Source of the DNA: an uncultured Acidobacteriota bacterium
Lineage (GTDB): Bacteria > Acidobacteriota > Vicinamibacteria > Fen-336
Length of the DNA stretch: 64,000 bases
Assembly: GCA_963720545.1 (NCBI GenBank)
Contig: OY970399.1
Coordinates: 3,347,022-3,411,021 of the forward strand
Direction: 5' to 3'
The notes beneath the pieces are model-generated. The model did no database searches and was not told the DNA's origin. It was given only the letters and a program-made list of their open reading frames with translations. A program made the position numbers and the translations under genes. Shown one piece after another: positions 6,955 to 57,999 of the stretch (positions are counted from its first letter, which is position 1; the number at the start of each line of letters is the position of its first letter).

Positions 6955-6972
6955 ACTGCGTCCGGACGCAGT
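6955..6972 (+). terminator. Terminator-like palindrome ACTGCGTCCGGACGCAGT 5 nt after the S10 peptidase stop (no T-tract)
   Basis: Perfect 18-nt palindrome seen directly; the lack of a U-tract makes intrinsic-terminator assignment tentative. Confidence 0.4.
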
Positions 6973-19288: not shown

Positions 19289-19373
19289 TCATCGACGGAT
19301 TGGCGGTCGTTCCCGTCCAATCCGTCGATTTCCGTTAGGCCGTTTCCCAGGCGCTTGCGTCAGCGTCCGTTCC
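19289..19373 (+). repeat. Repeat element copy 1: hairpin ATCGACGGATTGG-N13-CCAATCCGTCGAT (19291-19329) plus module CCCAGGCGCTTGCGTCAGCGTCCGTTCC (19346-19373)
   Basis: Perfect 13-bp inverted repeat starting 2 nt after the uvrB stop; the 28-nt module is identical to the reverse-strand copy at 36971-36998. Confidence 0.85.
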
Positions 19374-19634
19374 GATCTCCTGCTCCTGTGGCCGGCGAGT
19401 GGTCCTCCGCGCGGGACGTTCGGGCTCAGTGGAAAAATGTCCGCGCACTTCCCGCCAGTCGTCCGCTGCCACTGTGGCAATTGGTAACGCAACTGCGTCC
19501 GGACGCTGTTGGTTACCGAATGTAGCGCTCAAGGCGGAGCCCTGGGCAGCAGCACAAGCGTTCCGTCCTCGGGGAAACTTTTGCAGCAAACCGGGTTTGC
19601 CTGGGAGCAGTCTCTTCCTAGTAGGAGGTTCAAC

Positions 19635-19961: not shown

Positions 19962-19976
19962 ATTAAGCTCGGCCCG

Positions 19977-22730
<2,754 letters not shown>

Positions 22731-22742
22731 CGAGGAGGACGG

Positions 22743-23243: not shown

Positions 23244-23249
23244 TACTCG

Positions 23250-24090
23250 TTACGGCGTGATGTCGAGCGCCACGTCGAGGGCGGGGACGCTGTGCGTCAG
23301 CCAACCCAGGGAGAGCAGGTCGACACCGGTTTCCGCGACGGCGCGCGCGGTTTGCGGGGTGATGCCGCCGGAGGCTTCGGTAATGGCACGGCCGCGGCAC
23401 AGCGCCACGGCTTCGCGCAGGGTGGCGAGGTCCATGTTGTCGAGCAGCACGGTGTCGATCCCGAGCGCGAGGGCGTCGCGCAGCTGGTCCAGCGTGTCCA
23501 CTTCCACTTCCACCTTCGTCAGGTGCCCCGCCGACGCCTGCACGCGGCGGATGGCTTCGGCGATGCCGCCGGCCGCGGCGATGTGGTTGTCCTTCACCAG
23601 CACCGCGTCGTCGAGGCCAAAGCGATGGTTGCTGCCGCCGCCGACGCGCACCGCGTACTTCTCGAGCACGCGCAGCAGCGGTGTCGTCTTGCGGGTGCAC
23701 GTGACCCGTGCGTTCGTGCCCGCGAGGCTCGCCACCACGTCGCGCGTGGTGGTGGCGATGCCGCACATCCGTCCCAGCACGTTCAGCGCCACGCGCTCGG
23801 CGGAGAGCACGGCGCGCGCGCTCCCGGAGAGGCTCGCGATCGATGTGCCGGCCGCAACGTCGGCGCCGTCCGCGTGGCGCACGGTGGACTCCATCCGGGG
23901 GTCGAGCAGCCGCAAGGCTGCGAGTGCTATGTCGACGCCGGCGACGCGTCCCGCGCCACGCAGGATCATCTCGGCCCGAGCCCGTGCGCCCGGCGCCACG
24001 ATGGCATCGGTCGTGACGTCGCCCGCACCGCCCAGGTCCTCGCGCAGCGCCGCTTTCAGGAAGTCCTCGTACAGGAGCGGGTTCAGCATC
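23250..24090 (-). CDS. nadC: Nicotinate-nucleotide pyrophosphorylase (quinolinate phosphoribosyltransferase)
   Basis: 280 aa from ATG 24090; NadC-like N-terminus (LREDLGGAGDVTT) and C-terminal TIM-barrel motifs. Confidence 0.85.
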
Positions 24091-25644
24091 CTGCGGACGT
24101 TAGCGCGTCGGCCACCGCGCGCGGCAGGGCCGACTCGCTGCGGTGCGCCCAGCGCGCGTCGGCAGCGGGGTAGTCCTCGCGGAAATGGCCGCCGCGGCTC
24201 TCGCGTCGCTCGAGCGCGGCCGCGGCGATGAGGGCGCCGCAAAGCGCCATGTTGGCGGCCTCGCTCGCGCCCGGCGGGATGCGCGCCGCGATGGCGGCGA
24301 TCGTGGCGATGGCGCGGCGCAGGCCTTCCTCGTTGCGATAGAGCCCGACGTTGCGCCACATGGTTTCGCGCAGCTCGGCGACCAGCGCCGGGTCCACCTG
24401 CGCCGCGGCGCCGTTCGCCTCCAGCTCGGCGCGCACGCCGTCCGGAACCGCCGGCGCGGACGCATGCAGTGCGCCTGCGATGTCGATCGCCACGCGCCCG
24501 CCGAACACGACGCCTTCGAGCAGCGAGTTGCTCGCGAGCCGGTTCGCGCCATGGACGCCGGTCGATGCCGCTTCGCCGCACGCCCACAATCCGGGCAGCG
24601 AGGTGCGGCCGGCGCCGTCCACCGCGATTCCGCCCATGTGATAGTGCGCCGCCGGCGCCACCGGCACCAGGTCGCGTCGCGGGTCGAGGCCGTGCTGCGC
24701 GCACAAGGCGAACACGGTTGGGAACATTTCCGGGAACGAGGCGCCCACCGCGGTGCGCGCGTCGAGGAACGCCTCGCCGCCGCTGTCGAGCTGCCGCGCG
24801 ATGGCGCGGGCCACGATGTCGCGCGCAGCAAGCTCGCCCGCCGGGTCCGAGTCGAACAGGAAGCGCCGGCCGTGGCCGTCGACGATGGCGGCGCCGTGGC
24901 CGCGCAGCGCCTCGGTGAGCAGCGGCATCGGGTCGTCGCCCACCGCCAGCGCCGTGGGGTGGAACTGGACGAACTCGAGGTCGGCGAGCCGCGCGCCGGC
25001 GCGCGCCGCCATCGCGAGCCCGTCGCCGGTGGCCTCGACCGGGTTGGTGGTGCGCGAATAGACGCGGCCGAGTCCGCCGGTGGCGATGATGACGGCCTTC
25101 GCAAGGTACAGCGTGAGCTCGCCCGAAGCGTCGCGCGCCACGACCCCCTGCACGCGGCCGTTCGCCACCGCGAGGTCGCAGGCGAAGGTCTTCTCGTGCA
25201 CGATGACCCACGGCGCCTGGCGCGCCGCTTCGCTCAGCGCGCGCACGATTTCGGCGCCGGTGGCGTCGCGCGCGTGCAGGATGCGCGGCCGGCTGTGCGC
25301 CGCTTCGCGCGCCAGCGCCAGGTGGTCGTCGGCATCGCGATCGAAGCGCACGCCGAGCGCCAGCAGCTTGCGCACGGTCGCCGGCCCTTCTTCCGTGAGG
25401 ATCGCGACCGCCTCGGCATCGGCGAGACCGCCGGCCACCGCCACCGTGTCGCGCGCGTGCAGTTGCGGCGAGTCGTCCGCCGCCACGGCGGCGGCCATGC
25501 CGCCCTGCGCGTACGAGCTGGAGCCGCCGGCGCCGAACGCCGCCTTGGTGATCACCACCACCCGCCGCGGCGCGAGGTCGAGTGCCGCCGTCAGGCCGGC
25601 AACGCCCGCGCCGACGATGACGACATCCGCTGCGTCGTCCTTCA
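24083..25644 (-). CDS. nadB: L-aspartate oxidase
   Basis: GTG start at 25644; FAD motif VVIVGAGVAGL; flavoprotein motifs (HYHMGG, RLASNSL); overlaps the nadC start by 8 bp. Confidence 0.85.
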
Positions 25645-26664
25645 CCGCGCGGGCTCCGGGCCGATCGCCAGCATGCGCTCGACCGCCTGGCGCGCGCGGC
25701 CGGCAACTTCCGGCGCCACCGTCACCTCGTAGCGCAGGTGCAGCAGCGAGTCGTAGATCTTCGGCAGCGTGATGCGCTTCATGTGCGGGCAGAAGTTGCA
25801 GGGCCGGATGAACTCGGTGCCCGGCGCCATCACCGCGACGTTGTCGCTCATCGAGCACTCGGTGATCATCACCACGCGCGCCGGCCTGCGTTGCGTGACG
25901 TGGCGGATCATCCCCGACGTGGAGCCGACGAAGTCGGCTTCGGCGAGCACGTCGGGCGGGCATTCGGGATGCGCGATCACCTCGACGCCGGGGTTGAGGC
26001 GTCGGTACTCGCGGATCTCGGCGCCGGTGAAGCGCTCGTGCACCTCGCAGTGGCCCGTCCACAGGACGATCTCGACCTTGGTCTTGCTCGCGACGTACTT
26101 GCCGAGGTATTCGTCGGGCAGGAAGATCACCCGCGGTACGTTCAGCGATTCCACCACGCGCACGGCGTTCGACGACGTGCAGCAGATGTCCGACTCGGCC
26201 TTCACCTCGGCCGAGGTGTTGACGTAGGTGACGACCGGCACGCCGGGGTAGCGCTGCTTCAGCAGGCGCACGTCTTCGGCGGTGATCGACTCGGCGAGCG
26301 AACAGCCGGCCCGCGTGTCGGGGATGAGCACGGTCTTGCCGGGGTTCAGCACCTTGGCGGTCTCGGCCATGAACTGCACGCCGGCCATCACGATGACGTC
26401 GGCCTTGGTGTTCGCCGCTTCGCGCGCGAGGCCCAGCGAGTCGCCCTGGAAGTCGGCGACGCCGTGGAAGATCTCAGGCGTCTGGTACGTATGGGCGAGC
26501 ACCACGGCGTTGCGTTCGCGCTTCAGGGTGTTGATGGCGTCGATGTACGGCGCGAACACCGGCCACTCGATTTCCGGGACCACGCCCTTGACGCGATCCC
26601 AGGCTGCCGCGGTGCGCGCGGCCACCTCGGGCGTGAATGCCAGGCTGCTCATGTCTTCGCTCAC
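25642..26664 (-). CDS. nadA: Quinolinate synthase
   Basis: 340 aa; NadA motifs (VLAHTYQ, conserved Cys residues, PECPP). Confidence 0.9.
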
Positions 26665-26669
26665 CTCAT

Positions 26670-26699
26670 ATGCTCAGAAAGAGCATTAACGATGTGCTC
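26670..26699 (-). promoter_or_regulatory. Candidate operator: overlapping AT-rich inverted repeats between the nadA -10 element and the nadA start
   Basis: ATGCTC-agaaa-GAGCAT (26670-26686) and GAGCA-N9-TGCTC (26681-26699) in an otherwise GC-rich region; candidate NrtR site because nrtR lies immediately upstream. Confidence 0.4.
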
Positions 26700-26728
26700 A
26701 GGTTACGACCGCGCGTACGGGCTGTCAA
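26700..26728 (-). promoter_or_regulatory. Candidate sigma70-type promoter for nadABC (TTGACA-17 nt-TAACCT on the minus strand)
   Basis: Reverse complement of 26723-26728 is TTGACA and of 26700-26705 is TAACCT, with a 17-nt spacer, ~35 nt upstream of the nadA start. Confidence 0.45.
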
Positions 26729-26735
26729 GCGGCGC

Positions 26736-27644
26736 TCAGGCGCGGTTGGGGCGGCCGACTCCGGGCGCCAGGCGCTCGCGCCAGACGTCGCGGCGGAAGC
26801 GGAACAGCTCGGCGGGCCGGCCGGCGGTGCGCGCCGCGAACTTGCCGGTGCCTTCCACGAGCCCGGCGGTGGCCATCAGCCTGCGGAAGTTCTGCTTGTG
26901 CAGCCGATATCCGGCGAGCGCTTCCACCAGCCGCTGCAGCTGCAGCAGCGTGAAGGCGCGCGGCAGCAGCTCGAACACCACCGGCCGGTACCGGATCTTG
27001 CCGCGCAGCCGTCCCAGCGCCGTGGCCAGGATGCGGCGGTGGTCGAGGTCGAGCGGCTCGCCGGCCAGCGAGCGCGTGGCTTCGGAAAGGAGCCGCGCTT
27101 CGTAGAGCAACTCGTAGCGCTCGAGAACGCGGTCGGCGTCCCACGAAGCGCCGCGCAGGCCGAAGGCGACGTCGATACGCTCGCGGCGCAGCGCGCGCGC
27201 CTTCTGTTCCTTCTCCTGACGGGTCCACGCATCGAGCGCCGCGGTCAGCGGCTTGAGCGCGGCGGTGCGGCGTTCGCGTCCGTCCTCCCAGGGAAGGAAG
27301 TCGTAGATGTTGCGCCAATGCGCTTCGCCGCCACCGCCGAGCGCGCCCTCGCGGACCAGCGCGAGGTAGGCGACCGAGATCAGGCGCTGGCCATCGGCCG
27401 ACGGCCCGAGACGGTCGCGGTCGCCGAACGTGTAAAGCTGCTCGACGTAGCCGAGCTCGAGCCCGGACTGCTGGCGCACCCAGGAGCGCAGGCCGAGGTC
27501 GAGCGTGCGGTCGCCGGCCGGATCGAGCGGACCGAAGGGCAAGGCGCCCGGATGGCCCCTGCGGCTCACGATGAGGACACGCGGCTCGTCATCGGTGACG
27601 GCGACGACCACGGCGCTCAGCCCGATGACGACGCTCTCAGCCAA
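26736..27644 (-). CDS. nrtR: Nudix-related transcriptional regulator of NAD metabolism (NrtR-like): degenerate Nudix domain plus C-terminal winged helix
   Basis: Nudix-like N-domain whose box reads RSWVRQQSG (no catalytic Glu pair); C-terminal region with LLPRAFTLLQLQRLVEALAG; located directly upstream of nadABC. Confidence 0.7.
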   Translation of the reverse strand: MAESVVIGLSAVVVAVTDDEPRVLIVSRRGHPGALPFGPLDPAGDRTLDLGLRSWVRQQSGLELGYVEQLYTFGDRDRLGPSADGQRLISVAYLALVREGALGGGGEAHWRNIYDFLPWEDGRERRTAALKPLTAALDAWTRQEKEQKARALRRERIDVAFGLRGASWDADRVLERYELLYEARLLSEATRSLAGEPLDLDHRRILATALGRLRGKIRYRPVVFELLPRAFTLLQLQRLVEALAGYRLHKQNFRRLMATAGLVEGTGKFAARTAGRPAELFRFRRDVWRERLAPGVGRPNRA

Positions 27645-27646
27645 GC

Positions 27647-28399
27647 TCAGTCCTTCTTCGCCCCTTGCTTCGCCACCGCCTGGGCGGCGCGCTTCACGGC
27701 TTCAGGATCGCCGAGGTAGAAGTGCCGCACCGGCTTCAGGCCGGCATCGAGCTCGTAGACGAGCGGCACGCCGGTTGGAATGTTGAGCTCGGTGATCTCC
27801 TGCTCGGAGATGCCGTCGAGATACATCACCAGCGCGCGGAGGCTGTTGCCGTGCGCGGCGACCAGCACCCGCTGGCCGGCCCGCAGCGCCGGCGCAATGG
27901 TCTCGTGCCAATAGGGAAGGAAGCGCGCGACGGTGTCCTTCAACGACTCTGTGAGCGGCGCGCTGATGCCGGCGCCGAGATTCTGGTAGCGCGCGTCGCG
28001 GCCTTCATAGCGCTCGTCGTCCCGAGCGAGCGGCGGCGGCGGGTCGCCGTAGCTGCGGCGCCAGACCTTCACCTGCGCCTCGCCGAACTTCGCCGCGGTC
28101 TCGGCCTTGTTCAGTCCCTGCAAAGCGCCGTAGTGGCGCTCGTTGAGGCGCCAGGTTGGAAACACCGGCAGCCACATGAGGTCCATCTCGTCCAGGGCGA
28201 TCCAGAGCGTGCGGATGGCGCGCTTGAGGAGCGACGTGTACGCGAGGTCGAAGGTGTAGCCGCCCGCGCGCAGCAGCCGGCCGGCTTCGCGCGCCTCCTC
28301 GCGCCCCTTCGGCGAGAGGTCCACGTCGGTCCAGCCCGTGAAGCGGTTCTCGAGGTTCCATTGGCTTTCGCCGTGACGCAGCAGCACGAGTGTGGGCAT
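27647..28399 (-). CDS. gpmA: 2,3-bisphosphoglycerate-dependent phosphoglycerate mutase
   Basis: 250 aa; [12 protein letters not shown] catalytic His motif and GpmA-like overall sequence. Confidence 0.9.
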
Positions 28400-28430
28400 G
28401 TGCAGCGCAGTTTAAACTTCGCGCACCCGA

Positions 28431-29687
28431 ATGCTTCGCAATCCGCTGGCGCTGCTGCGAAGCTTGCCGCCGACCGTGCGTGTGCTGGTCTACGGCACCT
28501 TCGTCAACAAGCTCGGCACCTTCATCATCCCGTTCCTGACGCTGGTGTTGCGCCGCGAATTCCGCCTGAGCGAAGCGCAAACCGGGCTCGCGATCTTTGC
28601 CTACGGCGCCGGCTCGATCGTCTCCATACTCACCGGCGGCTACCTCTCGGACCGGCTCGGGCGGCGGCGCACGCTGCTCATCAGCCTCTGCGGCAGCGGC
28701 ATCCTGGCGGTCGCGATGGGCTTCGCGCCGTCGCTCGGCGTCTTCAGCGTGCTGCTGCTCTTATTCGGCTTCGTCGCCGACCTCTACCGGCCCGCGTCGT
28801 CGGCGATCGTCGGGGACCTGCTGCCGTCGGCGCGGCGGCCGGTGGGCTTCGCGGCGCTGCGGGTCGCGATCAACCTCGGCTTTGCCGGCGGCATGGCGCT
28901 CGGCGGCTTCCTCGCCGACGCCAACTGGCGCATCCTGTTCTGGGCCGACGGCGCCACGACACTCGCGTTCGGCGCGGTCGTGTTCCTGACGATCCCCGAC
29001 ACGCGCCCCGCCGTGACGCTCGAGAACGCCGCCCGCGGCGCGCTCGGCGCGGGACCGTGGCGCGACCGCGTCTTTCACCTGGCACTCGTGTCGTCGTTCG
29101 TCTTCGCGATCGGCATGTTCGCCGACCTCACCATCCTGCCCCTGACGCTGAGCCAGTCCGCGGGCTATCCGTCGTACGTCTACGGCAGCCTGCTGGCCAT
29201 GAACGGCCTGGTGGTGGGACTGCTCGAGATTCCGGCGGCGGCGTGGCTGCGGCGTTACCGGCGCCTGCGCGTCGCCGCCCTCGGCATGGCGTGCGGCGGC
29301 CTCGGCATCGGCATGACCGGCCTCGATTTCCACTGGGCGTGGCTCGCGCTCTCGATCCTGGTCTGGACGGTGGGCGAGGTGCTGACCATGCCGCAGCACA
29401 TGGCGTTCGTCGCCGACTGGTCGCCGCCGGCGGCGCGCGGGCGCTATCTCGGGCTCTACAGCGCCACCTGGAGTCTGGGCCTGGCGCTCAACCCCATCGT
29501 GTTCCTGCCGCTGCACTCGCGCCTGTCGGAAGGTGCTTTCTGGCTGGTGATGGGCGTCGTCGCGTTCGCACCCGCGCTCTTGTGCCTGCACCTCGACCGC
29601 CATGCCGACCGGCCCGAGCTGTTGCGCGGCGCCGATCACGGGCCGCTGAGCGAAGCGGCGATCATTCCCGACAGGCCCGAGGGCTAG
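28431..29687 (+). CDS. MFS transporter
   Basis: 418 aa, ~12 predicted TM helices, MFS-like loop motif GYLSDRLGRRRT. Confidence 0.8.
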   Translation: MLRNPLALLRSLPPTVRVLVYGTFVNKLGTFIIPFLTLVLRREFRLSEAQTGLAIFAYGAGSIVSILTGGYLSDRLGRRRTLLISLCGSGILAVAMGFAPSLGVFSVLLLLFGFVADLYRPASSAIVGDLLPSARRPVGFAALRVAINLGFAGGMALGGFLADANWRILFWADGATTLAFGAVVFLTIPDTRPAVTLENAARGALGAGPWRDRVFHLALVSSFVFAIGMFADLTILPLTLSQSAGYPSYVYGSLLAMNGLVVGLLEIPAAAWLRRYRRLRVAALGMACGGLGIGMTGLDFHWAWLALSILVWTVGEVLTMPQHMAFVADWSPPAARGRYLGLYSATWSLGLALNPIVFLPLHSRLSEGAFWLVMGVVAFAPALLCLHLDRHADRPELLRGADHGPLSEAAIIPDRPEG

Positions 29688-29698
29688 AATCCGTCACC

Positions 29699-30538
29699 GT
29701 GAACCGAGTCGCGATCTACGGCGCCGGCGAAGTGGGCGCGACCACGGCGCGGCGGCTCGCGGAACTCGAGTTGTGCCGCAGCATCGTGCTCGTCGATTCC
29801 GACGAAGGGCGCGCCCGCGGCAAGGCGCTCGACCTGATGCAGTCGGGCCCGGTCGAGGGTTACGACACGGCTTTGTCGGGCGTGAGCGTGCTGGAGGCGG
29901 CGGGCGAGTGCGACGCGGTGATTCTCGCCGACGGGCCGCTTTTCTCCGGTACGACACCGGAGCTGCCGTCGGCGCTGCTCGAGCTGGCGCGCTCGGTGTC
30001 GCGCGTGACCGGCGGGCCGGTGCTCGCGGCACTCCCCGAATGCGCGGCGTTCCTCGAGACGGCGGTTCGTTCCGGGCAGCCGCGCGACCGCGTGATGGGC
30101 ACGGCCGGCATCGCTTTCGCCGGCGCCGTGCGGGCCGCGCTCGCTGCGGGGCTCGACGCGCGGCCGGTGGACATCGCGTTGTGCGTGCTCGGCAGGCCGC
30201 CGGCGGACGGCATGGTGCCGATCGAGTCGGCCACCTGCGCCGGCATCCGCGTCGACGCGCTCTCGCCTTCGGCGCTGCGCCGTGCGCTCGAGTCGGCGCG
30301 CAAGCATGTGGCCGGCCCGGTGGCGCTGGCCGCCGCCGCCGCGCGCGCGCTCGCCGGTTTGCAGGGCGGCGCGACGACCTTGTCGCTCACAGTGGTGCTG
30401 GACGGCGAGTACGGCCATCGCGGCATCGCGCTCACGGTACCGGCGCGCCTCGCCAACGGCCGCATCGAACGCGTGGTGGAGATTGCGCTGCAGCCGGTAG
30501 ACCGCGTCGCGTTCGACCGCGCCGCGTCGCGTCGCTGA
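29699..30538 (+). CDS. Lactate/malate dehydrogenase-fold protein, apparently lacking catalytic His and Arg
   Basis: GTG start; Rossmann N-terminus VAIYGAGEVGATTARRLA...VLVD...GKALDL matches the LDH/MDH family; where MDH has ILGGHGD this reads VLGRPPADG; the PRKPGMTR-type Arg loop reads PLFSGTTPE. Confidence 0.6.
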   Translation: MNRVAIYGAGEVGATTARRLAELELCRSIVLVDSDEGRARGKALDLMQSGPVEGYDTALSGVSVLEAAGECDAVILADGPLFSGTTPELPSALLELARSVSRVTGGPVLAALPECAAFLETAVRSGQPRDRVMGTAGIAFAGAVRAALAAGLDARPVDIALCVLGRPPADGMVPIESATCAGIRVDALSPSALRRALESARKHVAGPVALAAAAARALAGLQGGATTLSLTVVLDGEYGHRGIALTVPARLANGRIERVVEIALQPVDRVAFDRAASRR

Positions 30539-30555
30539 CGACGGCCTGCGGCGCG

Positions 30556-31110
30556 CTACAACAGCGCGGGCTTGAGGTCGGCGTGCGCGGACGAGATCAC
30601 GACGCGCGCGATCAGCATGCCTTCCTTGCGCACCGACGCGGCGCCGGCGGCGACGGCCGCCTCGACCGCGGCGACGTCGCCGGTGAGCACCACCAGGCCC
30701 TTGCCGCCCGGCTGGTTGCGTGCCTCGATGAGGGTGACGGCGGCCGCCTTCACCGCGGCGTCGCCGGCGAAGATGGCGGAGGCCACTTCCTTCGTTTCGA
30801 TGATGCCGACGGCGCCGATCTGCGGCACCGCGACGCGGCCCTTGATGGCCGCGGCGAGCTGCGGGTCGGCATTCTGGATGATGAAGTCGTCGAGCAGCGT
30901 TGCGGCTGCCGTCTCGCGGCCGGCGCTGAGCGAAGCCTCGACGTCGGCGACATTGCCGCCGATCATGATGAGGTACTTGCCGCGCGGCACGATGGTGGTG
31001 AGCAGCAGGTCCACCGATGCCCGCTTCAGCATCGCGTCCACGGCTTCGATGCCCTTGGCGATCGACGACGTCTCGATGAAGCCGATGGCCGGCCCGCTCT
31101 TCTCTTTCAT
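30556..31110 (-). CDS. Tandem BMC-domain shell protein (BMC-T, PduT-like)
   Basis: 184 aa from ATG 31110; two BMC domains (AIGFIETSSIAKGIEAVDAMLKRASVDLL and AVGIIETKEVASAIFAGDAAVKAAAVTLI); Val where PduT carries the Fe-S cysteine. Confidence 0.7.
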   Translation of the reverse strand: MKEKSGPAIGFIETSSIAKGIEAVDAMLKRASVDLLLTTIVPRGKYLIMIGGNVADVEASLSAGRETAAATLLDDFIIQNADPQLAAAIKGRVAVPQIGAVGIIETKEVASAIFAGDAAVKAAAVTLIEARNQPGGKGLVVLTGDVAAVEAAVAAGAASVRKEGMLIARVVISSAHADLKPALL

Positions 31111-31145
31111 GGCGGGAGTGTAGCGCTTGTTGGCCTCCCGGCCTT

Positions 31146-32030
31146 GTGGGACGATGCCCGGCGTTGACCAGCCCCGAAGAAGACCCTGCGCTGCGTGCCG
31201 CGTTCGCCCACTGCGAGCGGATCGCGCGCGCCCATTACGAGAACTTTCCCGTGGGGCTGTTCGTCCCCAGGGCGAGCCAGAAGTACGTGCACTCGCTCTA
31301 TGCCTTTGCCCGCACCGCCGACGATTTCGTGGACGAGCCCGAATACGCCGCGGTGCGCGCGGAAAAGCTCGCGGACTGGCAGCAGCGCCTCGACGCAACG
31401 TATGCGGGGCGGCCCGACGGCCCGATCTTCGTGGCGCTCGGCGAAACAGTGCGCAAGCTCGGCATCGACAAGCGCCTGCTCGACGACCTGCTCAGCGCCT
31501 TTCGCCAGGACACGGTGAAGAGCCGCTACGCCGACTGGGAAGAGCTGCGCGATTATTGCCGGCGCTCCGCCGACCCCGTAGGGCGCCTGGTGCTGCTGGT
31601 GTTCGGCTACCGCGACCCTTCTCTGGCGCGCAGCGCCGATGCGCTGTGCACGGCGTTGCAGCTTGCGAACCATTGGCAGGATCTCGGCATCGACCTCGCG
31701 CGCGACCGCATCTACGTGCCGCAACAGATCCTCGCGCGGCATGGCGTCGACGAAGCCGCGCTGCGTGCGCACCGTGCCGACGAACCGTTTCGCGCGCTGA
31801 TGCAGGAGCTCGTCGCCCGCACCCGCGAGCTGTTCACGATCGCGCGGCCGCTCTGCGACCGGGTCGGCCGCGACCTGCGCTTCGAGCTGCGGCTCACGTG
31901 GCTCGGCGGCTCGGGCATCCTCGACCGCATCGAAGTCGCCGGCTACGACGTGTTCAGGCGCCGGCCGCATCACAACCTGGCGGCGAAGCTGCGGCTCGCA
32001 TGGCACGCGTGGCGCTGGCGGGCGGCGTGA
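31146..32030 (+). CDS. hpnC: Hydroxysqualene synthase HpnC (squalene/phytoene synthase family)
   Basis: HYENFPVG motif and DxxxD-type isoprenoid synthase fold; start codon uncertain (GTG 31146 or TTG 31164). Confidence 0.75.
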   Translation: MGRCPALTSPEEDPALRAAFAHCERIARAHYENFPVGLFVPRASQKYVHSLYAFARTADDFVDEPEYAAVRAEKLADWQQRLDATYAGRPDGPIFVALGETVRKLGIDKRLLDDLLSAFRQDTVKSRYADWEELRDYCRRSADPVGRLVLLVFGYRDPSLARSADALCTALQLANHWQDLGIDLARDRIYVPQQILARHGVDEAALRAHRADEPFRALMQELVARTRELFTIARPLCDRVGRDLRFELRLTWLGGSGILDRIEVAGYDVFRRRPHHNLAAKLRLAWHAWRWRAA

Positions 32031-32034
32031 ACGC

Positions 32035-32883
32035 ATGAACGCCTCGCCGAGCGCCATGGTGACGCGCCGCAGCGGCACCAGCTTCTACGCCGCGTTCGTC
32101 ATGCTTCCGCCGGCCAAGCGGCGCGCGCTCGAGGCGCTCTATGCCTTCTGCCGCATCGTCGACGACTGTGTGGACGACGCCCGGGGCGCCGGGGCGCCCG
32201 GTCTCGACCGCTGGAGCGCCGAAGTGGACGCGGCTTTCGCCGGCCGCGACCCGCGCACCGAGATCGGCCGCGCGATCGCGGCGGCGCTGGAACGCTTTCC
32301 CATGCCGCGCGCCAGCTTCCGCGACGTCATCGAGGGCTGCCGAATGGACCTCGCGCCGCGCGCCTACCAGACGTTCGACGACCTGCGCGTCTACTGCGAA
32401 CGGGTCGCGTCGGCGGTGGGCCTCGCCGCCATCGAGATCTTCGGCTACCGCGATCCGCAGACGAAGGAGTATGCGCGCGAGCTGGGTGTGGCGCTGCAGC
32501 TCATCAACATCGTGCGCGACCTCGGCGGCGATGCGCTCGCGGGCCGCGTCTACGTCCCCGGCGACGACCTCGACGCGCAGTTGCTGACGCGCGAAACGTT
32601 TCGCGCGGCGGCATCGGGCAGCGCCCCGCGCACGCCCGCCGTAGACCGAGTGGTCGCGGCACAGGCCGAGCGCGCCCTGAGCCAATACCGGCACGCGCAG
32701 TCGCTGCTGCCGGCCGCCGACCGTCGCAGCATGCTGCCGGCACAGGTGATGGCAGCCACCTATCGCGAGATCCTCGCGCGGCTCGCCGCGCGCGGCTACC
32801 CGTTCGGCGAGCGCCTGCGCCTCAACCGCCTTGCCAAGGCGCGTGTCGCCCTGCGCACTGTCGCGAGCGAGATGTTCGCGTGA
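32035..32883 (+). CDS. hpnD: Presqualene diphosphate synthase HpnD (squalene/phytoene synthase family)
   Basis: SFYAAF motif and Asp-rich motifs (VDDCVDD); directly follows hpnC. Confidence 0.8.
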   Translation: MNASPSAMVTRRSGTSFYAAFVMLPPAKRRALEALYAFCRIVDDCVDDARGAGAPGLDRWSAEVDAAFAGRDPRTEIGRAIAAALERFPMPRASFRDVIEGCRMDLAPRAYQTFDDLRVYCERVASAVGLAAIEIFGYRDPQTKEYARELGVALQLINIVRDLGGDALAGRVYVPGDDLDAQLLTRETFRAAASGSAPRTPAVDRVVAAQAERALSQYRHAQSLLPAADRRSMLPAQVMAATYREILARLAARGYPFGERLRLNRLAKARVALRTVASEMFA

Positions 32884-34331
32884 AGGTGGCGGTGGTCGGC
32901 GCCGGGTTCGCGGGCATGGCCGCTGCCATCGCGCTGCAGGAGGCCGGCCACGAGGTGGTGCTGCTGGAGCGCCGCGGCGTGCTGGGCGGCCGCGCCACCT
33001 CCTATCGCGATGCGCTGTCGGGTGAAGAGGTGGATAACGGCACGCACCTGATGGTCGGCGCCTACACCGCCACGCGCGAGCTCGCGGCCCGCGCCGGGGC
33101 CGCGGACCTCCTCGAACTGCAGCCGAACCTGCGGATCGACTTCATCGACGACGCCGGCCTGCGGACGCTTCGGTGTCCGGCCCTGCCTGCGCCCTTCCAC
33201 CTGCTGGCCGGCCTTTTCTCGTTCGACATCAGCTGGCGCGCCCGCCGTGACGCCGCGCGCCTCGCGTGGGCCGCGCGCTTCGGCAAGCCGCCCGTGGGCC
33301 TGACCGCCGACCAATGGTTCGAGGCGACCGGGCAGGGCGAGGAGATCCGCACCGCGCTGTGGGATCCGCTGGTTCGCGCCATAGTCAATGAGGATACGCA
33401 GTGCGCCGCCGCCATCCTCTTCTACAACGTGTTCCGCGAGACCTTCCTCCGCGGCCGCGCCGCATCGTCGCTGCTGTTCCTCAAGGCAGGCTTCGCCGTG
33501 CTTCACGAGCGGCTCGCCGCGCATTTCGTGGCGCGCGGCGGGGTGCTGCGCCGGCGCGCCACCGCGCTCGCGGTGCAGGCGCGAGACGGGCGCGTTTGCT
33601 CTGTCCTCGTCAGGCAGGGCGCCGCGGGCCGCGCGTCGATCCTGGCCGGCGCCGGCGGCGGCCGGCTGCAGCTCGACGCCGATGCGGTGGTGCTTGCGGT
33701 ACCGCACTCCGCGGTGCGCCGCCTGGTGCCTGAAGAGTTCCGCATCGTCCGGCCGTTCGACCTGCTCGACAGCTTCGGCGGCGCGCCAATCGTCTCGGTG
33801 GACGTCTGGATCGATCGCCTCGCGGTGCCATACCCCATGGTCGGCTTGCGCGACGAAACCTTCGAATGGGTGTTCGACAAGGGTCGCGCGTTCGGCCGCA
33901 GCGGGCTGCCGCAGCACCTCTCGCTCCTCATCAGCGCGGCGCACGACGCCTGCGCGCGCCCCAATGCCGACCTGGTGGCCGGCGCCGAGCATGCGCTGCG
34001 CCGCTACTTCCCCGGGATGAGCGGGGTGCGCATCGAGCGCTCGCTGGTGCTGCGTGAGCCGCTTGCCACCTTCGCCTCACGTCCGCAGCTCGAAGCGCTG
34101 CGGCCGAAGGCGACGACACCCATCGGTGGGCTGTTCCTGGCCGGCGACTGGACGGCAACCGGGCTGCCGGCAACGATCGAGGGCGCCGTGCGCAGCGGCA
34201 TCGAAGCCGCGCGACAGGCGTGCGCCTGGGAGCAGCAACTCGCATCACCATCAAGCAAGGAGAACGCCGCATGGACATGGAGCCAGGAAGCCGAATCCGC
34301 ACCCGCAGCCGGAGCCGAGCGCTCGGCGTGA
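32880..34331 (+). CDS. hpnE: Hydroxysqualene dehydroxylase HpnE (FAD-dependent amine-oxidase fold)
   Basis: N-terminal FAD motif VAVVGAGFAGMAAA; 4-bp overlap with the hpnD stop. Confidence 0.8.
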   Translation: MKVAVVGAGFAGMAAAIALQEAGHEVVLLERRGVLGGRATSYRDALSGEEVDNGTHLMVGAYTATRELAARAGAADLLELQPNLRIDFIDDAGLRTLRCPALPAPFHLLAGLFSFDISWRARRDAARLAWAARFGKPPVGLTADQWFEATGQGEEIRTALWDPLVRAIVNEDTQCAAAILFYNVFRETFLRGRAASSLLFLKAGFAVLHERLAAHFVARGGVLRRRATALAVQARDGRVCSVLVRQGAAGRASILAGAGGGRLQLDADAVVLAVPHSAVRRLVPEEFRIVRPFDLLDSFGGAPIVSVDVWIDRLAVPYPMVGLRDETFEWVFDKGRAFGRSGLPQHLSLLISAAHDACARPNADLVAGAEHALRRYFPGMSGVRIERSLVLREPLATFASRPQLEALRPKATTPIGGLFLAGDWTATGLPATIEGAVRSGIEAARQACAWEQQLASPSSKENAAWTWSQEAESAPAAGAERSA

Positions 34332-35968
34332 TGTTCCTCGCCGCCGCGGCCGCCGGCACGGCGCAGGGCGGCGACCGCGAGCAGGGCCGCTCGCTGGTGA
34401 TGAGCAAGGGCGGCATCGTCGCGAGCGAGCACCCGCTCGCGTCGCAGGCAGGTGCCGCGATCCTGGCGAACGGCGGCAACGCCATCGACGCGGCGGTCGC
34501 GGCGAACGCTGTGATGGGCCTGGTGGCGCCAATGAGCAACGGCATCGGCGGCGACCTGTTCGCGATCGTCTACGACGCGAAGACGAAGAAGACCTACGGC
34601 CTGAACGCGAGCGGCTGGGCGCCGAAGGGGCAGTCGCGCGATCGCCTCGCGGCGGCGGGCCACAAGGAAATGCCCGCGGACGGGATCGAGACGGTGACGG
34701 TGCCGGGCGCGGTGGACGGCTGGAGCAAGCTGCTGGCGCGCTTCGGCACGCAGCCGCTCGCCGCGGTGCTGGCGCCGGCGATCCGCATTGCCGACGACGG
34801 GTTCCCGGTGAGCGAGTGGGTGGCCGCGAACTGGCAAGGCCACGACAAGATCCTCAAAGGCAACGCCCTTGCGTTGTACGTGCCGGGTGGCAAGGTGCCA
34901 GGCGTCGGCGACGTGTTTCGCAACCCCGACCTCGCGAACTCGCTGCGCGCCATCGCGAAGGGCGGCCGCGATGCCTACTACAAGGGCGCCATCGCGCAGG
35001 CGATCGTCGCCGAGTCGCAGGCGCACCACGGCACCATGGACGCGGCCGACCTCGCCGAGTACGAGAGCGAGTGGGTGGAGCCGATCAGCACCACGTACCG
35101 CGGCTGGACCGTTTACGAGATTCCGCCGAACACGCAGGGCATTGCAGCTCTCGTGATGCTCAACATGATGGAAGGCATGCCGCTTGCGCAGTGGGGGCAC
35201 AACTCCGCGCGCACGCTGCACAACCTCATCGAAGCGAAGAAGCTCGCGTACGCCGACATGATCCGCTACGTCGGCGATCCGCGAATGGCGGCAGTGCCAT
35301 CCGCCGGGCTGCTTTCCAAGGAGTACGCGGCGGGCCGCGCCAGACTCATCGACCCGGCGAAGGCGGCGGCAGCCGCGACCGCCGGCAGCGTGCGCGTCGG
35401 CAACGACACGATCTACCTCGCCACCGTGGACGGCGCCGGCAACATGGTGTCGCTGATCCAGAGCAACTACGAGAGCTACGGCTTTGGCTCAGGTCTGGTG
35501 GCGGCCGGCACCGGCTTCTGCCTGCACAACCGCGGCGCCTTGTTCACGCTCGACGCGCACAGCCCGAACGTGATCGCACCGCGCAAGCGGCCGCTGCACA
35601 CCATCATTCCCGCGATGATGGAACGCGGCGAGGAGCGCATCGGCTTCGGCATCATGGGCGGCTACAACCAGGCACAGGCGCACGCGCAGTTCGTCTCGAA
35701 CATCGTCGACCATGGCATGAACATCCAGGCGGCGATGGAAGCGGCGCGCTTCAACAAGTCCACGTTCGATGGGCTCGACGTGCAGATCGAGGACCGCGTC
35801 GCGCCTGAAGCGAAGGCCGAGCTCACACGCCTCGGCCACCAGATCACGTGGCGCCACGGCTTCTCCTCGAACATGGGCGGCGGCCAGGCGGTGATGCGCA
35901 ACTACAAGACCGGCGTCAACTCCGGCGCCTCCGACCCCCGCAAAGACGGCGCCGCCATCCCCCAGTAA
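34271..35968 (+). CDS. ggt: Gamma-glutamyltransferase, secreted
   Basis: GGT family motifs and autoprocessing-site region (TIYLATVDGAGNMVS); start chosen at ATG 34271 to include an Arg-rich signal peptide, which puts 61 bp inside the hpnE 3' end; alternative start ATG 34331. Confidence 0.8.
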   Translation: MDMEPGSRIRTRSRSRALGVMFLAAAAAGTAQGGDREQGRSLVMSKGGIVASEHPLASQAGAAILANGGNAIDAAVAANAVMGLVAPMSNGIGGDLFAIVYDAKTKKTYGLNASGWAPKGQSRDRLAAAGHKEMPADGIETVTVPGAVDGWSKLLARFGTQPLAAVLAPAIRIADDGFPVSEWVAANWQGHDKILKGNALALYVPGGKVPGVGDVFRNPDLANSLRAIAKGGRDAYYKGAIAQAIVAESQAHHGTMDAADLAEYESEWVEPISTTYRGWTVYEIPPNTQGIAALVMLNMMEGMPLAQWGHNSARTLHNLIEAKKLAYADMIRYVGDPRMAAVPSAGLLSKEYAAGRARLIDPAKAAAAATAGSVRVGNDTIYLATVDGAGNMVSLIQSNYESYGFGSGLVAAGTGFCLHNRGALFTLDAHSPNVIAPRKRPLHTIIPAMMERGEERIGFGIMGGYNQAQAHAQFVSNIVDHGMNIQAAMEAARFNKSTFDGLDVQIEDRVAPEAKAELTRLGHQITWRHGFSSNMGGGQAVMRNYKTGVNSGASDPRKDGAAIPQ

Positions 35969-36084
35969 TCGACGGATTGGCTTGTCCGTCCCCGTCCAAT
36001 CCGTCGATTTCCTGCTTGAGGTGTCGCACGGTGCAGCGAAAGTTCCCTCGGTCGCAGCGCAAGCGTTGAGCTCCTCGGGAAAAC
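35968..36084 (+). repeat. Repeat element copy 2: hairpin (35968-36008) plus module GCAGCGCAAGCGTT...CTCCTCGGGAAAAC (36054-36084)
   Basis: Same 13-bp arms as copy 1; the first base is shared with the ggt stop codon; the second module matches 19562-19591. Confidence 0.85.
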
Positions 36085-36086
36085 GG

Positions 36087-36953
36087 TTAGTCGATGCGGG
36101 CGACTCCGGGGGCGGTGGCGGGGAAGCGGTCGAAGATTGCGGGGTCGTGGCCGGGAACGATCCGGCGCCGGTCCTCGACGAGCTTCCCCATCCGGCTCTG
36201 CGCTTCCAGGTTGGCGGCGGCATCGAAGGTCTCGCCGATCGCGAGGTGGTTTTCCAGATTCTCGTAGAGATACGCGTTGTCGGAAGCGATCAGGACCGGG
36301 CCGACACGCGTGCCGACGGTCGCGTACTGGGAGGCGAAGGTGTGCCGCCCGCCGGTGTACACGCGGATCCCCGGGATGATCTCCTTGTCGTCGCCGTCCA
36401 CGAGCGTCACGCGCCCCGCGGCGCTGAGCTTCGCGAGCATCGCGGCGTCCACGGCCGACATGTCGTCGTGCAGCGCTTCGCCCTTTGCGCCGACGTAGTA
36501 CTCGTACTCGGCGCGCTGGATCCAGATGTGCGCGTTCGGGAACAGGTCGGCGCCGTCGAGATGGTCCCAATGCACGTGCGAGACGATGATGTCGGTGACG
36601 GCCTCCGGCGCAATTCCCGCGGCCGCAACGGCGTCGGACGGCTTGCGATAGTCGGCGGGTTTCCACGCCTTCATGAACTCGTCGCGGTAGAAGCCGGCGT
36701 CCACCAGCACGTTGCGCTTCTCCGGACCCTTCAGCAGCCACACCATCATCGCGCCGTCGCTCTTGCGGCTCGGGTCGGCGCCCGCCACGAGCTCGGAGGT
36801 CGGGAACCCGAGCAGCATGCCGTAGCGAACCGCGTACACCTCGTAGACAGGCGGAGCCGCCGCCACGGGCTGGGCGGCGGGCCGCTGCGCTTTGCAGGCT
36901 GGGAGCAGGGCGAATGCTAGCGGCAAGGCGAACACGAGGGTGGTCTTGGGCAT
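36087..36953 (-). CDS. MBL-fold metallo-hydrolase lipoprotein
   Basis: Lipobox LLPAC; metallo-beta-lactamase motif HVHWDH; start taken at ATG 36953. Confidence 0.75.
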   Translation of the reverse strand: MPKTTLVFALPLAFALLPACKAQRPAAQPVAAAPPVYEVYAVRYGMLLGFPTSELVAGADPSRKSDGAMMVWLLKGPEKRNVLVDAGFYRDEFMKAWKPADYRKPSDAVAAAGIAPEAVTDIIVSHVHWDHLDGADLFPNAHIWIQRAEYEYYVGAKGEALHDDMSAVDAAMLAKLSAAGRVTLVDGDDKEIIPGIRVYTGGRHTFASQYATVGTRVGPVLIASDNAYLYENLENHLAIGETFDAAANLEAQSRMGKLVEDRRRIVPGHDPAIFDRFPATAPGVARID

Positions 36954-36970
36954 GCGGGAGTTTAGACAAA

Positions 36971-37056
36971 GGAACGGACGCTGACGCAAGCGCCTGGGGG
37001 GACGACAAGAACGGCAATCGACGGATTGGACGGGGACGGAGAGCCAATCCGTCGAT
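36971..37056 (-). repeat. Repeat element copy 3 (reverse orientation): hairpin 37017-37056 plus 28-nt module 36971-36998
   Basis: Hairpin ends 6 nt after the def stop on the minus strand; the module is the exact reverse complement of 19346-19373. Confidence 0.85.
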
Positions 37057-37061
37057 GACAG

Positions 37062-37583
37062 TTACACGAACCGTTCGAATTCGTTGAGGAACGCGAGCGA
37101 GCGCATATCGCGCATGCGGTCGAGGTAGACGCTGCCGTCGAGGTGGTCGCACTCGTGCTGGATGACGCGGGCGAAGAAGGTGTCGGTTTCGACGACGTAC
37201 TTCCTGCCCTTGCGGTCGCGGGCTTCCATGCGCACCTTGCGGAAGCGGGGGACGACGCCGCGCAGGTCGGGGATCGACAAACAGCCTTCGAAACCGTCCA
37301 GCAGTTCGTCGCCGACCGCGGTCACCACCGGGTTGATGAGCACGGTCAGGGGCACCGCGTCCTCGGCACGCTCGTCACTCGCGTCGACCTCGATGACTGC
37401 GAGGCGCAAGCCCTCGTGAACCTGCGGCCCGGCGAGGCCGACGCCTTCGTATTCGTGCATGGTCTCGACCATGTCGTCGATGAGGCGCTGGATGCGCGGC
37501 GTGCGGATCTCGTCCACTTCCAGGTTGCGCGCCGCCTTGCGGATGACGGGATGGCCGATGCGAGCGACTTTCAGGATCGCCAA
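37062..37583 (-). CDS. def: Peptide deformylase
   Basis: TTG start preceded by AAGGAG gives MAILKVARIGHPVIRK; motifs GVGLAGPQV, EGCLSIP, HECDHLDG. Confidence 0.85.
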   Translation of the reverse strand: MAILKVARIGHPVIRKAARNLEVDEIRTPRIQRLIDDMVETMHEYEGVGLAGPQVHEGLRLAVIEVDASDERAEDAVPLTVLINPVVTAVGDELLDGFEGCLSIPDLRGVVPRFRKVRMEARDRKGRKYVVETDTFFARVIQHECDHLDGSVYLDRMRDMRSLAFLNEFERFV

Positions 37584-37596
37584 AGGCAGCTCCTTG

Positions 37597-38286
37597 CTAG
37601 TGGTCCCTGATGAAGCGGGCGAGGCCCGCGAGGTCGGTGACGCGCGCATACGGACGGCGTCGCGGCGCGCGGTGCGCGCCGCGGTCGAGCCATACGAAGC
37701 GCACGCCGGCGCCGTGCGCGGCGTCGCCGTCGGTCGTCGGGTTGTCGCCGATGAAGATCGCATCCGCGGCGCGCGCGCCGATGCGTCGCAGCGCCTCGAT
37801 GACGATGCGCGGGTCGGGCTTGGTGAAGCCGCAGCCTTCCGAGGTGACGACGGTGTGGAAGCGGTCGCGCAGCCCGGCGAGGCGCAGCCGCGAGCGCTGC
37901 ACGCGGTCGATGCCGTTGGTGACGATCGCGAGGCGATGCCGCTTCGCCGCCACGGCCAGCACCCGCAGGCAGCCCGGCAGCATGTCGGCGCGCGCCGCCA
38001 GCGAGGTGAGGTAGACGCGCGAAAAACGGCGGGCGAGCCGCGGCTCGCGGCCGAGCGCGACCGCAAGGCGGCGGAAGCGTTCGTGCGACAGCTCGGCCTG
38101 GCCGATGCGGCCCTTCTCGTACTCGCGCCAGATCACGGCGTTGATGGCGCGATAGGCCGCGAGCGCGCGCGGGCCGAAGGGGATGCCCATGGCGCGAAAC
38201 GCCTCTGCCAGCGCAAGCCGCTGGGAGCGCTCGAAGTCGAAGAGCGTCTCGTCGAGGTCGAAGAGGAGGGCGGAACGCGGCGCCAA
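37597..38286 (-). CDS. HAD-superfamily hydrolase
   Basis: Motif I LLFDLDETLFD; HAD-like C-terminal motifs (FIGDNPTTD). Confidence 0.7.
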   Translation of the reverse strand: MAPRSALLFDLDETLFDFERSQRLALAEAFRAMGIPFGPRALAAYRAINAVIWREYEKGRIGQAELSHERFRRLAVALGREPRLARRFSRVYLTSLAARADMLPGCLRVLAVAAKRHRLAIVTNGIDRVQRSRLRLAGLRDRFHTVVTSEGCGFTKPDPRIVIEALRRIGARAADAIFIGDNPTTDGDAAHGAGVRFVWLDRGAHRAPRRRPYARVTDLAGLARFIRDH

Positions 38287-41676: not shown

Positions 41677-42336
41677 GTGCTACGCTCGGAGGAGGCTCCT
41701 GAAATGGCCGTCCTGCCGCCGATCATTCCCCTGTTCCCCCTGGGAGAGGTGGTCCTCTTCCCGAAGGTGGCGCTGCCACTGCACATCTTCGAGCCGCGTT
41801 ACCGGAAGATGACCGCCGACGCCCTCGCCGGCGAGCGCATCATCGGCATGACGCTGCTGCAGGCGGGCTTCGAGGCGAGCTACGTCGGCCGCCCGCCGGT
41901 TTTTCCGCTCGGCTGCGCCGGCCACATCGAAGAGACCGAGGCCCTGCCCGACGGCCGCTACAACATGCTGCTGCGCGGCGTGTCGCGCTTTCGCATCGTC
42001 GAGGAGCGCCACGGGCAGCCCTACCGGCTGGCGGCGATCGAAGAAGTGGAAGACGGCCGCTACGATGCCGCGCGCGTGGGTGCGATGCGCGACAAGATCC
42101 TGAACGCGGTGTCGGCGGCGTCGCCGCGGCCAACGCTGCTGGTGGTGCAGCCCGACGTGAGCGACGAGCTGTTCCTCAACACGCTGTGCCAGATGCTGCC
42201 GTTCGATGTGGTGGAAAAGCTCTCGCTCCTCGAATGCGACAGCCTCGGCCAGCGTTGCGACCGGCTCCTGGAACTCCTCGAGTACAAACGACTCACCGGC
42301 AACCTCGCCTCGGGCCGGGTCGAACGGCCTAACTAG
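41677..42336 (+). CDS. Lon N-terminal (substrate-binding) domain protein
   Basis: LON-N type N-terminus (IPLFPLGEVVLFPKVALPLHIFEPRY); no AAA+ or protease domain; start may be ATG 41704. Confidence 0.7.
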   Translation: MLRSEEAPEMAVLPPIIPLFPLGEVVLFPKVALPLHIFEPRYRKMTADALAGERIIGMTLLQAGFEASYVGRPPVFPLGCAGHIEETEALPDGRYNMLLRGVSRFRIVEERHGQPYRLAAIEEVEDGRYDAARVGAMRDKILNAVSAASPRPTLLVVQPDVSDELFLNTLCQMLPFDVVEKLSLLECDSLGQRCDRLLELLEYKRLTGNLASGRVERPN

Positions 42337-42378
42337 TCATCGGCGGATGGGCTTGCCGTTCACGACCCATCCGCCGAT
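42337..42378 (+). repeat. Repeat element copy 4, variant hairpin ATCGGCGGATGGG-N14-CCCATCCGCCGAT
   Basis: Starts 3 nt after the Lon-N gene stop; differs from the main type at paired positions on both arms. Confidence 0.8.
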
Positions 42379-57732: not shown

Positions 57733-57821
57733 CATCGGCGGATGGGCCGCCTCGCCGACCATCCGCCGATTTCCGTTCGTCCATTCTTTCGTTCCCAGGC
57801 GCTTGCGTCCGGGTCCGTTCC
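57733..57821 (+). repeat. Repeat element copy 5: variant hairpin (57734-57770) plus module CCCAGGCGCTTGCGTCCGGGTCCGTTCC (57794-57821)
   Basis: Starts 6 nt after the GNAT gene stop; same stem variant as copy 4. Confidence 0.85.
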
Positions 57822-57928
57822 GGTGGCCGTTTCCTGACGGTCACTTGCGGCGCGCAGGACCACTCGCCGGCCGCTATCGAGCTACGGCGCTCAGACACAG
57901 TAGCAGAGATCCGGACGGTACGGCCGAT

Positions 57929-57999
57929 GACGCAAGCGCCTGGGGAACGGACTAACGGAAATCGACGGATTGGACGCGAACGATCGCCAATCCGTCGAT
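57929..57999 (-). repeat. Repeat element copy 6 (reverse orientation): hairpin 57961-57999 plus module core GACGCAAGCGCCTGGGG (57929-57945)
   Basis: Main-type 13-bp arms; inverted relative to copy 5 about 190 bp away. Confidence 0.85.

Follow-up and report, generated by a model that had tools for sequence, protein, structure and literature searches.

The sequence under study lies between two convergent genes, one for a gamma-glutamyltranspeptidase (GGT) and one for an MBL-fold protein, within a 64,000-nt stretch of DNA, the whole of which is called the window below. As given in a preliminary description of this DNA, a conserved module, GCAGCGCAAGCGTTGAGCTCCTCGGGAAAAC, occupies positions 36054-36084 and stops 2 nt short of the stop codon of the MBL-fold gene (36087-36953, minus strand), position 36084 being followed by GG and then by TTA at 36087-36089. 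Its partner, GCAGCACAAGCGTTCCGTCCTCGGGGAAAC, follows the uvrB gene; it had been placed at 19562-19591 and is found at 19549-19578, 13 nt further left, where it begins 258 nt past the start and 220 nt past the end of the first hairpin of the window's repeat family (Table 1). The close match reported between the two copies was recovered, with 26 of 31 columns identical and a single gap, and local alignment adds 9 nt on its upstream side (CCCTSGG..), giving 32 identities in 40 columns (36045-36084 against 19540-19578). A small hairpin within the module (CAGCG-CAAG-CGTTG) was considered and rejected, as it is not preserved in copy 1.

Local alignment of the two 350-nt right flanks of hairpins 1 and 2 gives a score of 18.5. 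None of 1000 dinucleotide-preserving shuffles of these flanks reaches that value (mean 9.6, s.d. 1.1, maximum 16), and the top alignment score among 66 pairs of other intergenic regions in the window is 15. Taken alone, the 14-mer core of the module has no window-wide significance, with five matches at two or fewer mismatches against 2.7 expected.

The module is accompanied in the window by a family of short palindromic hairpins, six at five loci in 64 kb, whereas chance would yield 2.3 matches to one arm. Four of these have the form ATCGACGGATTGG-N13-15-CCAATCCGTCGAT and begin at 19291, 35967, 37016 and 57961, the latter two in the orientation opposite to the former two, and a variant, ATCGGCGGATGGG...CCCATCCGCCGAT, is found at 57734 and 42339. 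The two hairpin subfamilies are two double changes apart, and the palindrome is perfect in both. Three window copies run on into TTTCCGTTAG.CCGTT and then into a 28-nt module, CCCAGGCGCTTGCGTCAGCGTCCGTTCC, referred to below as the 28-nt unit; a sigma-54 promoter reading of this unit was rejected by eye on the unfit spacing of GG and GC. The solo palindrome ACTGCGTCCGGACGCAGT at 6955-6972 could be the genome's second REP-like unit.

Hairpins of this family adjoin gene ends. At six of six independent loci (including a third module locus, at exbD, which lies outside the window) the hairpin overlaps the stop codon of a co-oriented gene or begins 0-5 nt past it, the genes being uvrB, GGT, def, a LON-domain gene, a GNAT gene and exbD. 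The genes that flank element copies are all ordinary housekeeping genes in mixed orientation. Hairpin-adjacent stops comprise four TAG, two TAA and no TGA codons; with TAG and TAA together making up 59% of the stops in the window, this is marginal (P ~0.04), and TA target duplication or stop-codon targeting was rejected on these grounds. Stop usage across the 58 predicted genes is itself odd for a genome of 70% GC (TAG 24, TGA 24, TAA 10). The window also contains a 135-nt direct repeat (54634-54768 and 55111-55245, 74% identical) inside one gene, where it represents two Allantoicase repeats; this allantoicase gene sits in a purine/urate catabolism cluster with genes for urate oxidase, HIUase, OHCU decarboxylase and xanthine dehydrogenase subunits.

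Three ENA assemblies, found by exact-protein look-up, served as sister genomes: A (ERZ25039530), B (ERZ25039588) and C (ERZ25039511), with contigs 96-98% identical to the window over tens of kb. One JGI contig also came from these look-ups, as did several Logan contigs, of which one is 100% identical to the window. Contig_3660 of genome A (L006) belongs to the GTDB species representative of the window's own lineage and was rejected as an independent species, since its ENA assembly also carries both window orthologues. L006 is labelled 'uncultured Actinomycetota bacterium' but encodes TonB/ExbB/ExbD, and the label looks wrong. On another contig of genome A (L001/L013 12541-14702, orthologous to window ~33900-35968), the genes for gamma-glutamyltranspeptidase and amine oxidase are called as several short fragments, and the alignment to the window has 59-64 gap openings and ends at window 33757, which suggests either indel errors of long-read assembly or real rearrangement.

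Table 1 Coordinates of the repeat-family features in the window (L014 is the GGT-locus contig of sister genome B)
Feature	Position	Strand	Remarks
Solo second palindrome ACTGCGTCCGGACGCAGT	6955..6972	.	Perfect 18-nt palindrome, 4 nt past TGA stop of peptidase S10 gene
Hairpin, copy 1	19291..19329	+	13-bp perfect arms, 13-nt loop; begins 2 nt past uvrB stop TAG (19286-19288)
CCGTTTCCC and 28-nt unit CCCAGGCGCTTGCGTCAGCGTCCGTTCC, copy 1	19340..19373	+	Putative left inverted-repeat partner of the module; paired with the module in the minimum-free-energy fold of the full-length orthologue
Left part of 155-nt palindromic core, copy 1	19390..19436	+	106 nt of core missing past 19436 relative to sister genomes
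Second palindrome, copy 1	19483..19517	+	GGTAAC..ACTGCGTCCGGACGC..GTTACC
Module, copy 1	19540..19578	+	CCCTGGGCAGCAGCACAAGCGTTCCGTCCTCGGGGAAAC; putative right terminal inverted repeat of the uvrB-locus element; ATG at 19635, 57 nt downstream
Hairpin, copy 2	35967..36009	+	AATCGACGGATTGG - 15 nt - CCAATCCGTCGATT; overlaps TAA stop (35966-35968) of GGT gene
Right-arm remnant just inside the module, copy 2	36015..36044	+	CTTGAGGTGTCGCACGGTGCAGCGAAAGTT; nhmmer match 36015-36084
Module, copy 2	36045..36084	+	CCCTCGGTCGCAGCGCAAGCGTTGAGCTCCTCGGGAAAAC; putative right terminal inverted repeat of the foldback element; orthologous to the end of the full-length L014 element
Copy 3: hairpin 37016-37056 and one 28-nt unit 36972-36999	36972..37056	-	Between def stop and MBL-fold gene start; without right arm
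Variant hairpin ATCGGCGGATGGG ... CCCATCCGCCGAT	42339..42378	+	Directly past TAG stop (42334-42336)
Symmetric copy	57734..57999	.	Plus strand: variant hairpin 57734-57770, 28-nt unit 57794-57822; minus strand: 28-nt unit 57916-57944, hairpin 57961-57999

At both window loci the sister genomes contain a full-length composite of ~400-510 nt. The intergenic region between the GGT and MBL-fold genes measures 118 nt in the window and in genome A, 508 nt in genome B (L014) and 147 nt in genome C (L015). In L014 it consists of the hairpin, two tandem 28-nt units, a long interior and the same last 70 nt as in the window, module included, so copy 2 of the window is an internal deletion of ~390 nt that joined the hairpin to the right end; the junction falls between 36013 and 36015 (BLAST break 36008/36015 against L014, together with the alignment). 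L015 has kept the hairpin and two 28-nt units and lacks the module, its flanking genes are intact, and its MBL-fold gene ends in TGA, not TAA.

Similarly, at the uvrB locus the contigs L018 and L019 have 105-106 nt extra exactly at the gap past window position 19436 (L018 1-153 corresponds to window 19284-19436, and L018 262-406 to window 19439-19584). L019 also has a duplicated hairpin and a partial 28-nt unit there. Duplicated hairpins occur in two genomes (L006 4008-4125; L019 2248-2370), the first copy being cut inside the 28-nt unit, between CCCAGGCGCTTGC and TCATCATCGACGG; their origin could be either nested insertion or tandem duplication. At the def-MBL locus the 28-nt unit is found once in the window and in L014, and four times in tandem, with a period of ~38 nt, in L015, where the unit and its linker (11453-11671, orthologous to window 36954-37061) form a VNTR-like tract directly upstream of the MBL-fold gene start. 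Past the variant hairpin at 42339-42378, the window and genome A are without a segment of 39-40 nt (TCCGTGACGGAGGCTTGTTGCCGTTTCGTTGCCGTGGTC) that is found in genomes B and C (L014 6093-6131; L015 6077-6116).

The preliminary description hinged on further copies of the module existing elsewhere, and they do: an inverted copy occurs in L014, and the third locus, between exbD and yciI in the sister genomes, carries the module in L006/L022, L024, L025 and L023. At least four structural alleles are present at this third locus. In genome A (L006), two hairpins and one 28-nt unit are accompanied by a module that matches the one at the GGT locus in 41 of 42 positions; genomes B and C (L024 and L025) have the full-length element, its right end being a diverged variant, GTCAGCGCGAGCGCTGGAGCGCTCAGGGCTTCGGGGCTAAT; and in the Logan contig L023 the second palindrome is joined straight to a module with three differences. 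L023 comes from the same sequencing run as L020, which has the window's variant (GCAGCACAAGCG) at the uvrB-locus module. The exbD-locus module of genome A is unlike its own orthologues in B and C and near its paralogue at the GGT locus, a pattern suggestive of gene conversion or replacement between copies. Throughout the sequence examined, the module is found at three loci only, and its copy number therefore looks low; the strict 21-base module pattern used in the scans misses diverged variants, so that pattern counts are lower bounds.

Aligned over their whole length, the elements at uvrB (L018), GGT (L014) and exbD (L024/L025) have one module order: a hairpin with a 13-bp stem, one or more 28-nt units (each within a ~38-nt unit), a 155-nt core, a second palindrome around ACTGCGTCCGGACGCAGT, and the module. 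The core, GGCCGGCGAGTGG...CCACTCGCCGTCC, is itself an inverted repeat and ~93% identical between the three paralogous loci; its conservation exceeds that of the arms, an unusual pattern in a MITE, and outside it much of the difference consists of indels rather than substitutions. The symmetric window copy retains 23 nt of it in its interior. L014 holds four nested inverted-repeat pairs, among them terminal pairs of 17 nt (88%) and 18 nt (89%), with CCGTTTTCCCGAGGAGC / GCCCTTCGGGAAAACGG as a terminal pair, and an nhmmer search with a module profile places the inverted module copy in its left part (12748-12798, E = 0.005). The 378-nt inner stretch of L014 folds into a rod closed by two arms (-116 kcal/mol, z = -7.6, with none of 100 shuffles as stable). 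In the RNA minimum-free-energy folds of L006 and L018, the 28-nt unit pairs with the module.

The relation between the two ends becomes visible when eight left units and five reverse-complemented modules are aligned: CGC and T..G are invariant, CGCTTGCG is present in at least 90% and the left arm of L014 is intermediate between 28-nt units and modules. The two arms have in common a CGCTTGCG / CGCAAGCG core, reported as invariant or at least 90% conserved, and their ends are complementary (CCGTTTTCCCGA / TCGGGAAAACGG). The arms are imperfect (~76% Watson-Crick overall), and a clear left arm is seen in the L014 copy only, the other copies having the shorter 28-nt unit, which is degenerate in L024/L025. 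Because of the arm alignment, the inverted copy in L014 and the folds, the module is interpreted as the right terminal inverted repeat, and the 28-nt unit as a shorter relative of the left arm.

The reading we favour, with a probability of roughly 0.7, takes the module for the right terminal inverted repeat of a MITE-like, non-coding foldback repeat and the window copies for deletion remnants. Alignments with the sister genomes show that two paralogous full-length elements underlie the window copies, which are their remnants: copy 1 has lost 106 nt of the core, and copy 2 has lost ~390 nt, so that its hairpin and last ~70 nt are left. The preliminary description had seen a mosaic family in which at least three modules, namely the hairpin, the 28-nt unit and the present module, are combined differently at different loci. 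The modules are real, belong to one family and recur at other loci; what does not hold is their free combination as independent units, since the orthologues at 96-98% identity show one ordered element. The varied combinations are accounted for mainly by deletion, tandem duplication of the 28-nt unit, duplication of hairpins and probable gene conversion.

In size and structure the element is MITE-like. The inner stretch of 378 nt and the composite of 400-510 nt are both below ~600 bp, no ORF is conserved between paralogues, and terminal inverted repeats are represented by the terminal pairs of L014 and by the arm-closed fold. A called 61-aa ORF of the element shows mostly non-synonymous substitutions and has no homologue but itself among 5.8 billion proteins; having recovered only itself, it was discarded as a spurious handle to more copies. 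No direct target-site duplication was seen by eye at the junctions of L014, L018, L006 and window copy 2, and the TA at both ends of copy 2 is part of two different stop codons and absent at the other copies. The genes of the window and of ~45 kb of other fetched loci encode no transposase, integrase or Y1/RAYT domain. An integron attC site, defined by a GTTRRRY core site, a cassette array and an integrase, was considered and rejected: GTTAGGC occurs in the copy 1 linker, elsewhere it is GTTAGTC or absent, and no integrase is present.

No empty orthologous site or insertion polymorphism was found, every examined locus being occupied in every sister genome with only internal deletions and duplications differing, and current mobility is thus not shown. 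Furthermore, paralogous cores differ by 7-10% and orthologues by 2-3%. Because of this difference and of the occupied sites, the element copies are older than the split of the sister genomes, and the changes now visible are decay and rearrangement, not transposition.

A structured non-coding RNA, either a 3'-UTR element or a small-RNA gene family, could instead extend from the 28-nt unit to the module; it would be transcribed with or just after the upstream gene, with the module as the 3' strand of the closing helix and the conserved 155-nt core as the functional part. We regard this as unlikely. The position of the hairpin at the stop of a co-oriented gene at all six loci speaks for such an RNA, the folds are stabler than those of shuffles (z = -3.1 to -4.7 as RNA), and the core has kept its identity across three paralogous loci amid rearranged surroundings. 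Rfam, however, yields no family: the window has no match at the gathering threshold, and a relaxed search with four element copies returned sub-threshold matches on palindromes only, the best being Ms_IGR-8 at 24 bits against a cut-off of 44, on both strands of a palindrome. Five sequences of the core, a sample without power, contain no compensatory pairs and have several broken ones, while mismatches in the arms (15 G.T against 23 A.C) give no G.U bias on the plus strand. Large losses, including half of the core, separate genomes that are 97-98% identical, and the family is unseen outside the species-level lineage of the window. Nor does the hairpin resemble an intrinsic terminator, as it is followed by TTTCC without a U-tract, and the scanner did not call it (its loop of 13-15 nt exceeds the scanner limit of 8). 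DNA-level palindromy fits better than selected RNA, if on a small sample, because of the missing Rfam match, compensatory pairs, G.U bias, conserved ORF and U-tract. A related proposal, which we consider improbable, treats the composite as a portable 3'-end device whose stop-codon hairpin modulates termination or stability of the upstream mRNA and whose foldback core is a functional RNA that needs the module to close its structure; that this RNA would be a small RNA or the guide-like RNA of an unseen mobile-element enzyme is similarly speculative.

It is also improbable that the hairpins are REPs of a REPIN/RAYT system, in which case the module would be an accessory motif in a BIME-like cluster that a single-copy RAYT elsewhere in the genome maintains and copies. 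The hairpins do constitute short, repeated extragenic palindromes, their two subfamilies remain perfect palindromes through the double changes, one inverted doublet is present (57734-57999), and the second palindrome type occurs solo after a stop codon. However, no RAYT (Y1 transposase) domain is encoded in the window or the fetched loci, the hairpins are single rather than paired at the other four loci, and the module is not palindromic and forms part of a 380-nt foldback, far longer than a REPIN.

Even less probable is a free-standing regulatory or protein-binding site, such as an operator or promoter element, that lies near two hairpins by happenstance. Copy 1 has a gene start 57 nt downstream and the CGCAAGCG core is invariant in all copies, yet copy 2 and the exbD-locus copies sit between convergent genes with nothing to regulate, the module is always the last segment of one and the same long element, the module-free GGT-MBL region of L015 has intact flanking genes, and no sigma-70-like promoter is found in 19000-38000. 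Chance similarity of two GC-rich intergenic stretches, with which the unenriched 14-mer core would agree, is refuted by the shuffles, by the 41/42 identical copy at the third locus and by flank homology that spans hundreds of nucleotides in the sister genomes.

The MITE-like foldback repeat favoured here appears restricted to one lineage. Among 185,579 species representatives, the strict module pattern has six matches, one of them in a related genome (L006) and the other five in unrelated taxa, a number that chance predicts. A hairpin scan of JGI metagenomes gave five matches, all unrelated palindromes with different flanks and GC content, in a collection that evidently is without the newer JGI sample holding L019; two scans of viral contigs gave no matches. 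The loci of the nearest MBL homologues (at most 71% identity) are not syntenic and have no element, and look-ups past the ends of the window returned one 2-kb contig only. For two window proteins the next-best homologues reach only ~70% identity, which leaves the lineage isolated in current databases. A Vicinamibacteria (Acidobacteriota) protein belongs to the same 90% cluster as the IF-1 of the window, which likewise speaks against the Actinomycetota label of L006.

In the past the family may have multiplied as a non-autonomous element, selfish or neutral and probably mobilised in trans; at present it would evolve chiefly through deletions, tandem duplications and gene conversion among its copies. 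For the host, the likely effect would be that of a stable stem-loop barrier where genes end, on the 3' side; no specific function is implied for the module itself.

These observations document a repeat family of a soil lineage that is uncultured and isolated and probably belongs to the Acidobacteriota class Vicinamibacteria. They also illustrate that decayed copies alone make 'modules' misleading, and that sister genomes at 96-98% identity reveal the full element. Intergenic regions bearing the element are indel hotspots, in which near-identical genomes show three to four structural alleles at each locus. This makes them potential strain markers, and also likely places for assemblies to break or become confused. 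The family has no bearing on a long-standing open question unless its conserved core proves to be a functional RNA.

Several known systems share parts of this architecture. The pneumococcal BOX element has the structure boxA-(boxB)n-boxC. By general description, not sequence, it is likewise a modular intergenic repeat of fixed module order with a tandem-variable middle unit (here the ~38-nt unit, in one to four copies), partly complementary end modules that close a stable stem-loop, common truncated versions and no encoded transposase. A sequence relationship is neither expected nor shown, and the present family differs in having a separate hairpin at the stop codon before the element, an interior 155-nt palindromic core and a host from a high-GC soil lineage instead of Streptococcus.

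Whole-length palindromic MITEs, such as the Correia elements of Neisseria and the enterobacterial ERIC/IRU sequences, are generally known as small, non-coding elements with terminal inverted repeats and a rod-like foldback, situated near genes in several copies with frequent internal deletion variants, all of which applies here. Unlike in those families, no TA or other target duplication, presence/absence polymorphism or parent IS was found for the present element, which is also longer (~380 nt inner, 400-510 nt composite) and has imperfect arms. The BIMEs of Escherichia coli, in which REP/PU palindromes are combined with short motifs, are by general knowledge extragenic mosaics after genes and between convergent genes, as are the copies described here. 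In this BIME sense of palindromic units with other conserved motifs, the word 'mosaic' can be considered right by analogy, although the variety here comes from rearranging one long element and not from alternating PU types with defined linkers, and the present element is not known to bind IHF, gyrase or Pol I.

As in REPIN/RAYT biology (PMC3116915, PMC3337134), the extragenic palindromes are lineage-restricted and vertically inherited at the same orthologous sites, with one inverted doublet; in contrast, no RAYT is seen here, the hairpins are mostly singletons and the module is not a REP. Taken together, the element is best filed as a previously undescribed, lineage-restricted intergenic foldback/mosaic repeat of the MITE / BIME / BOX kind.
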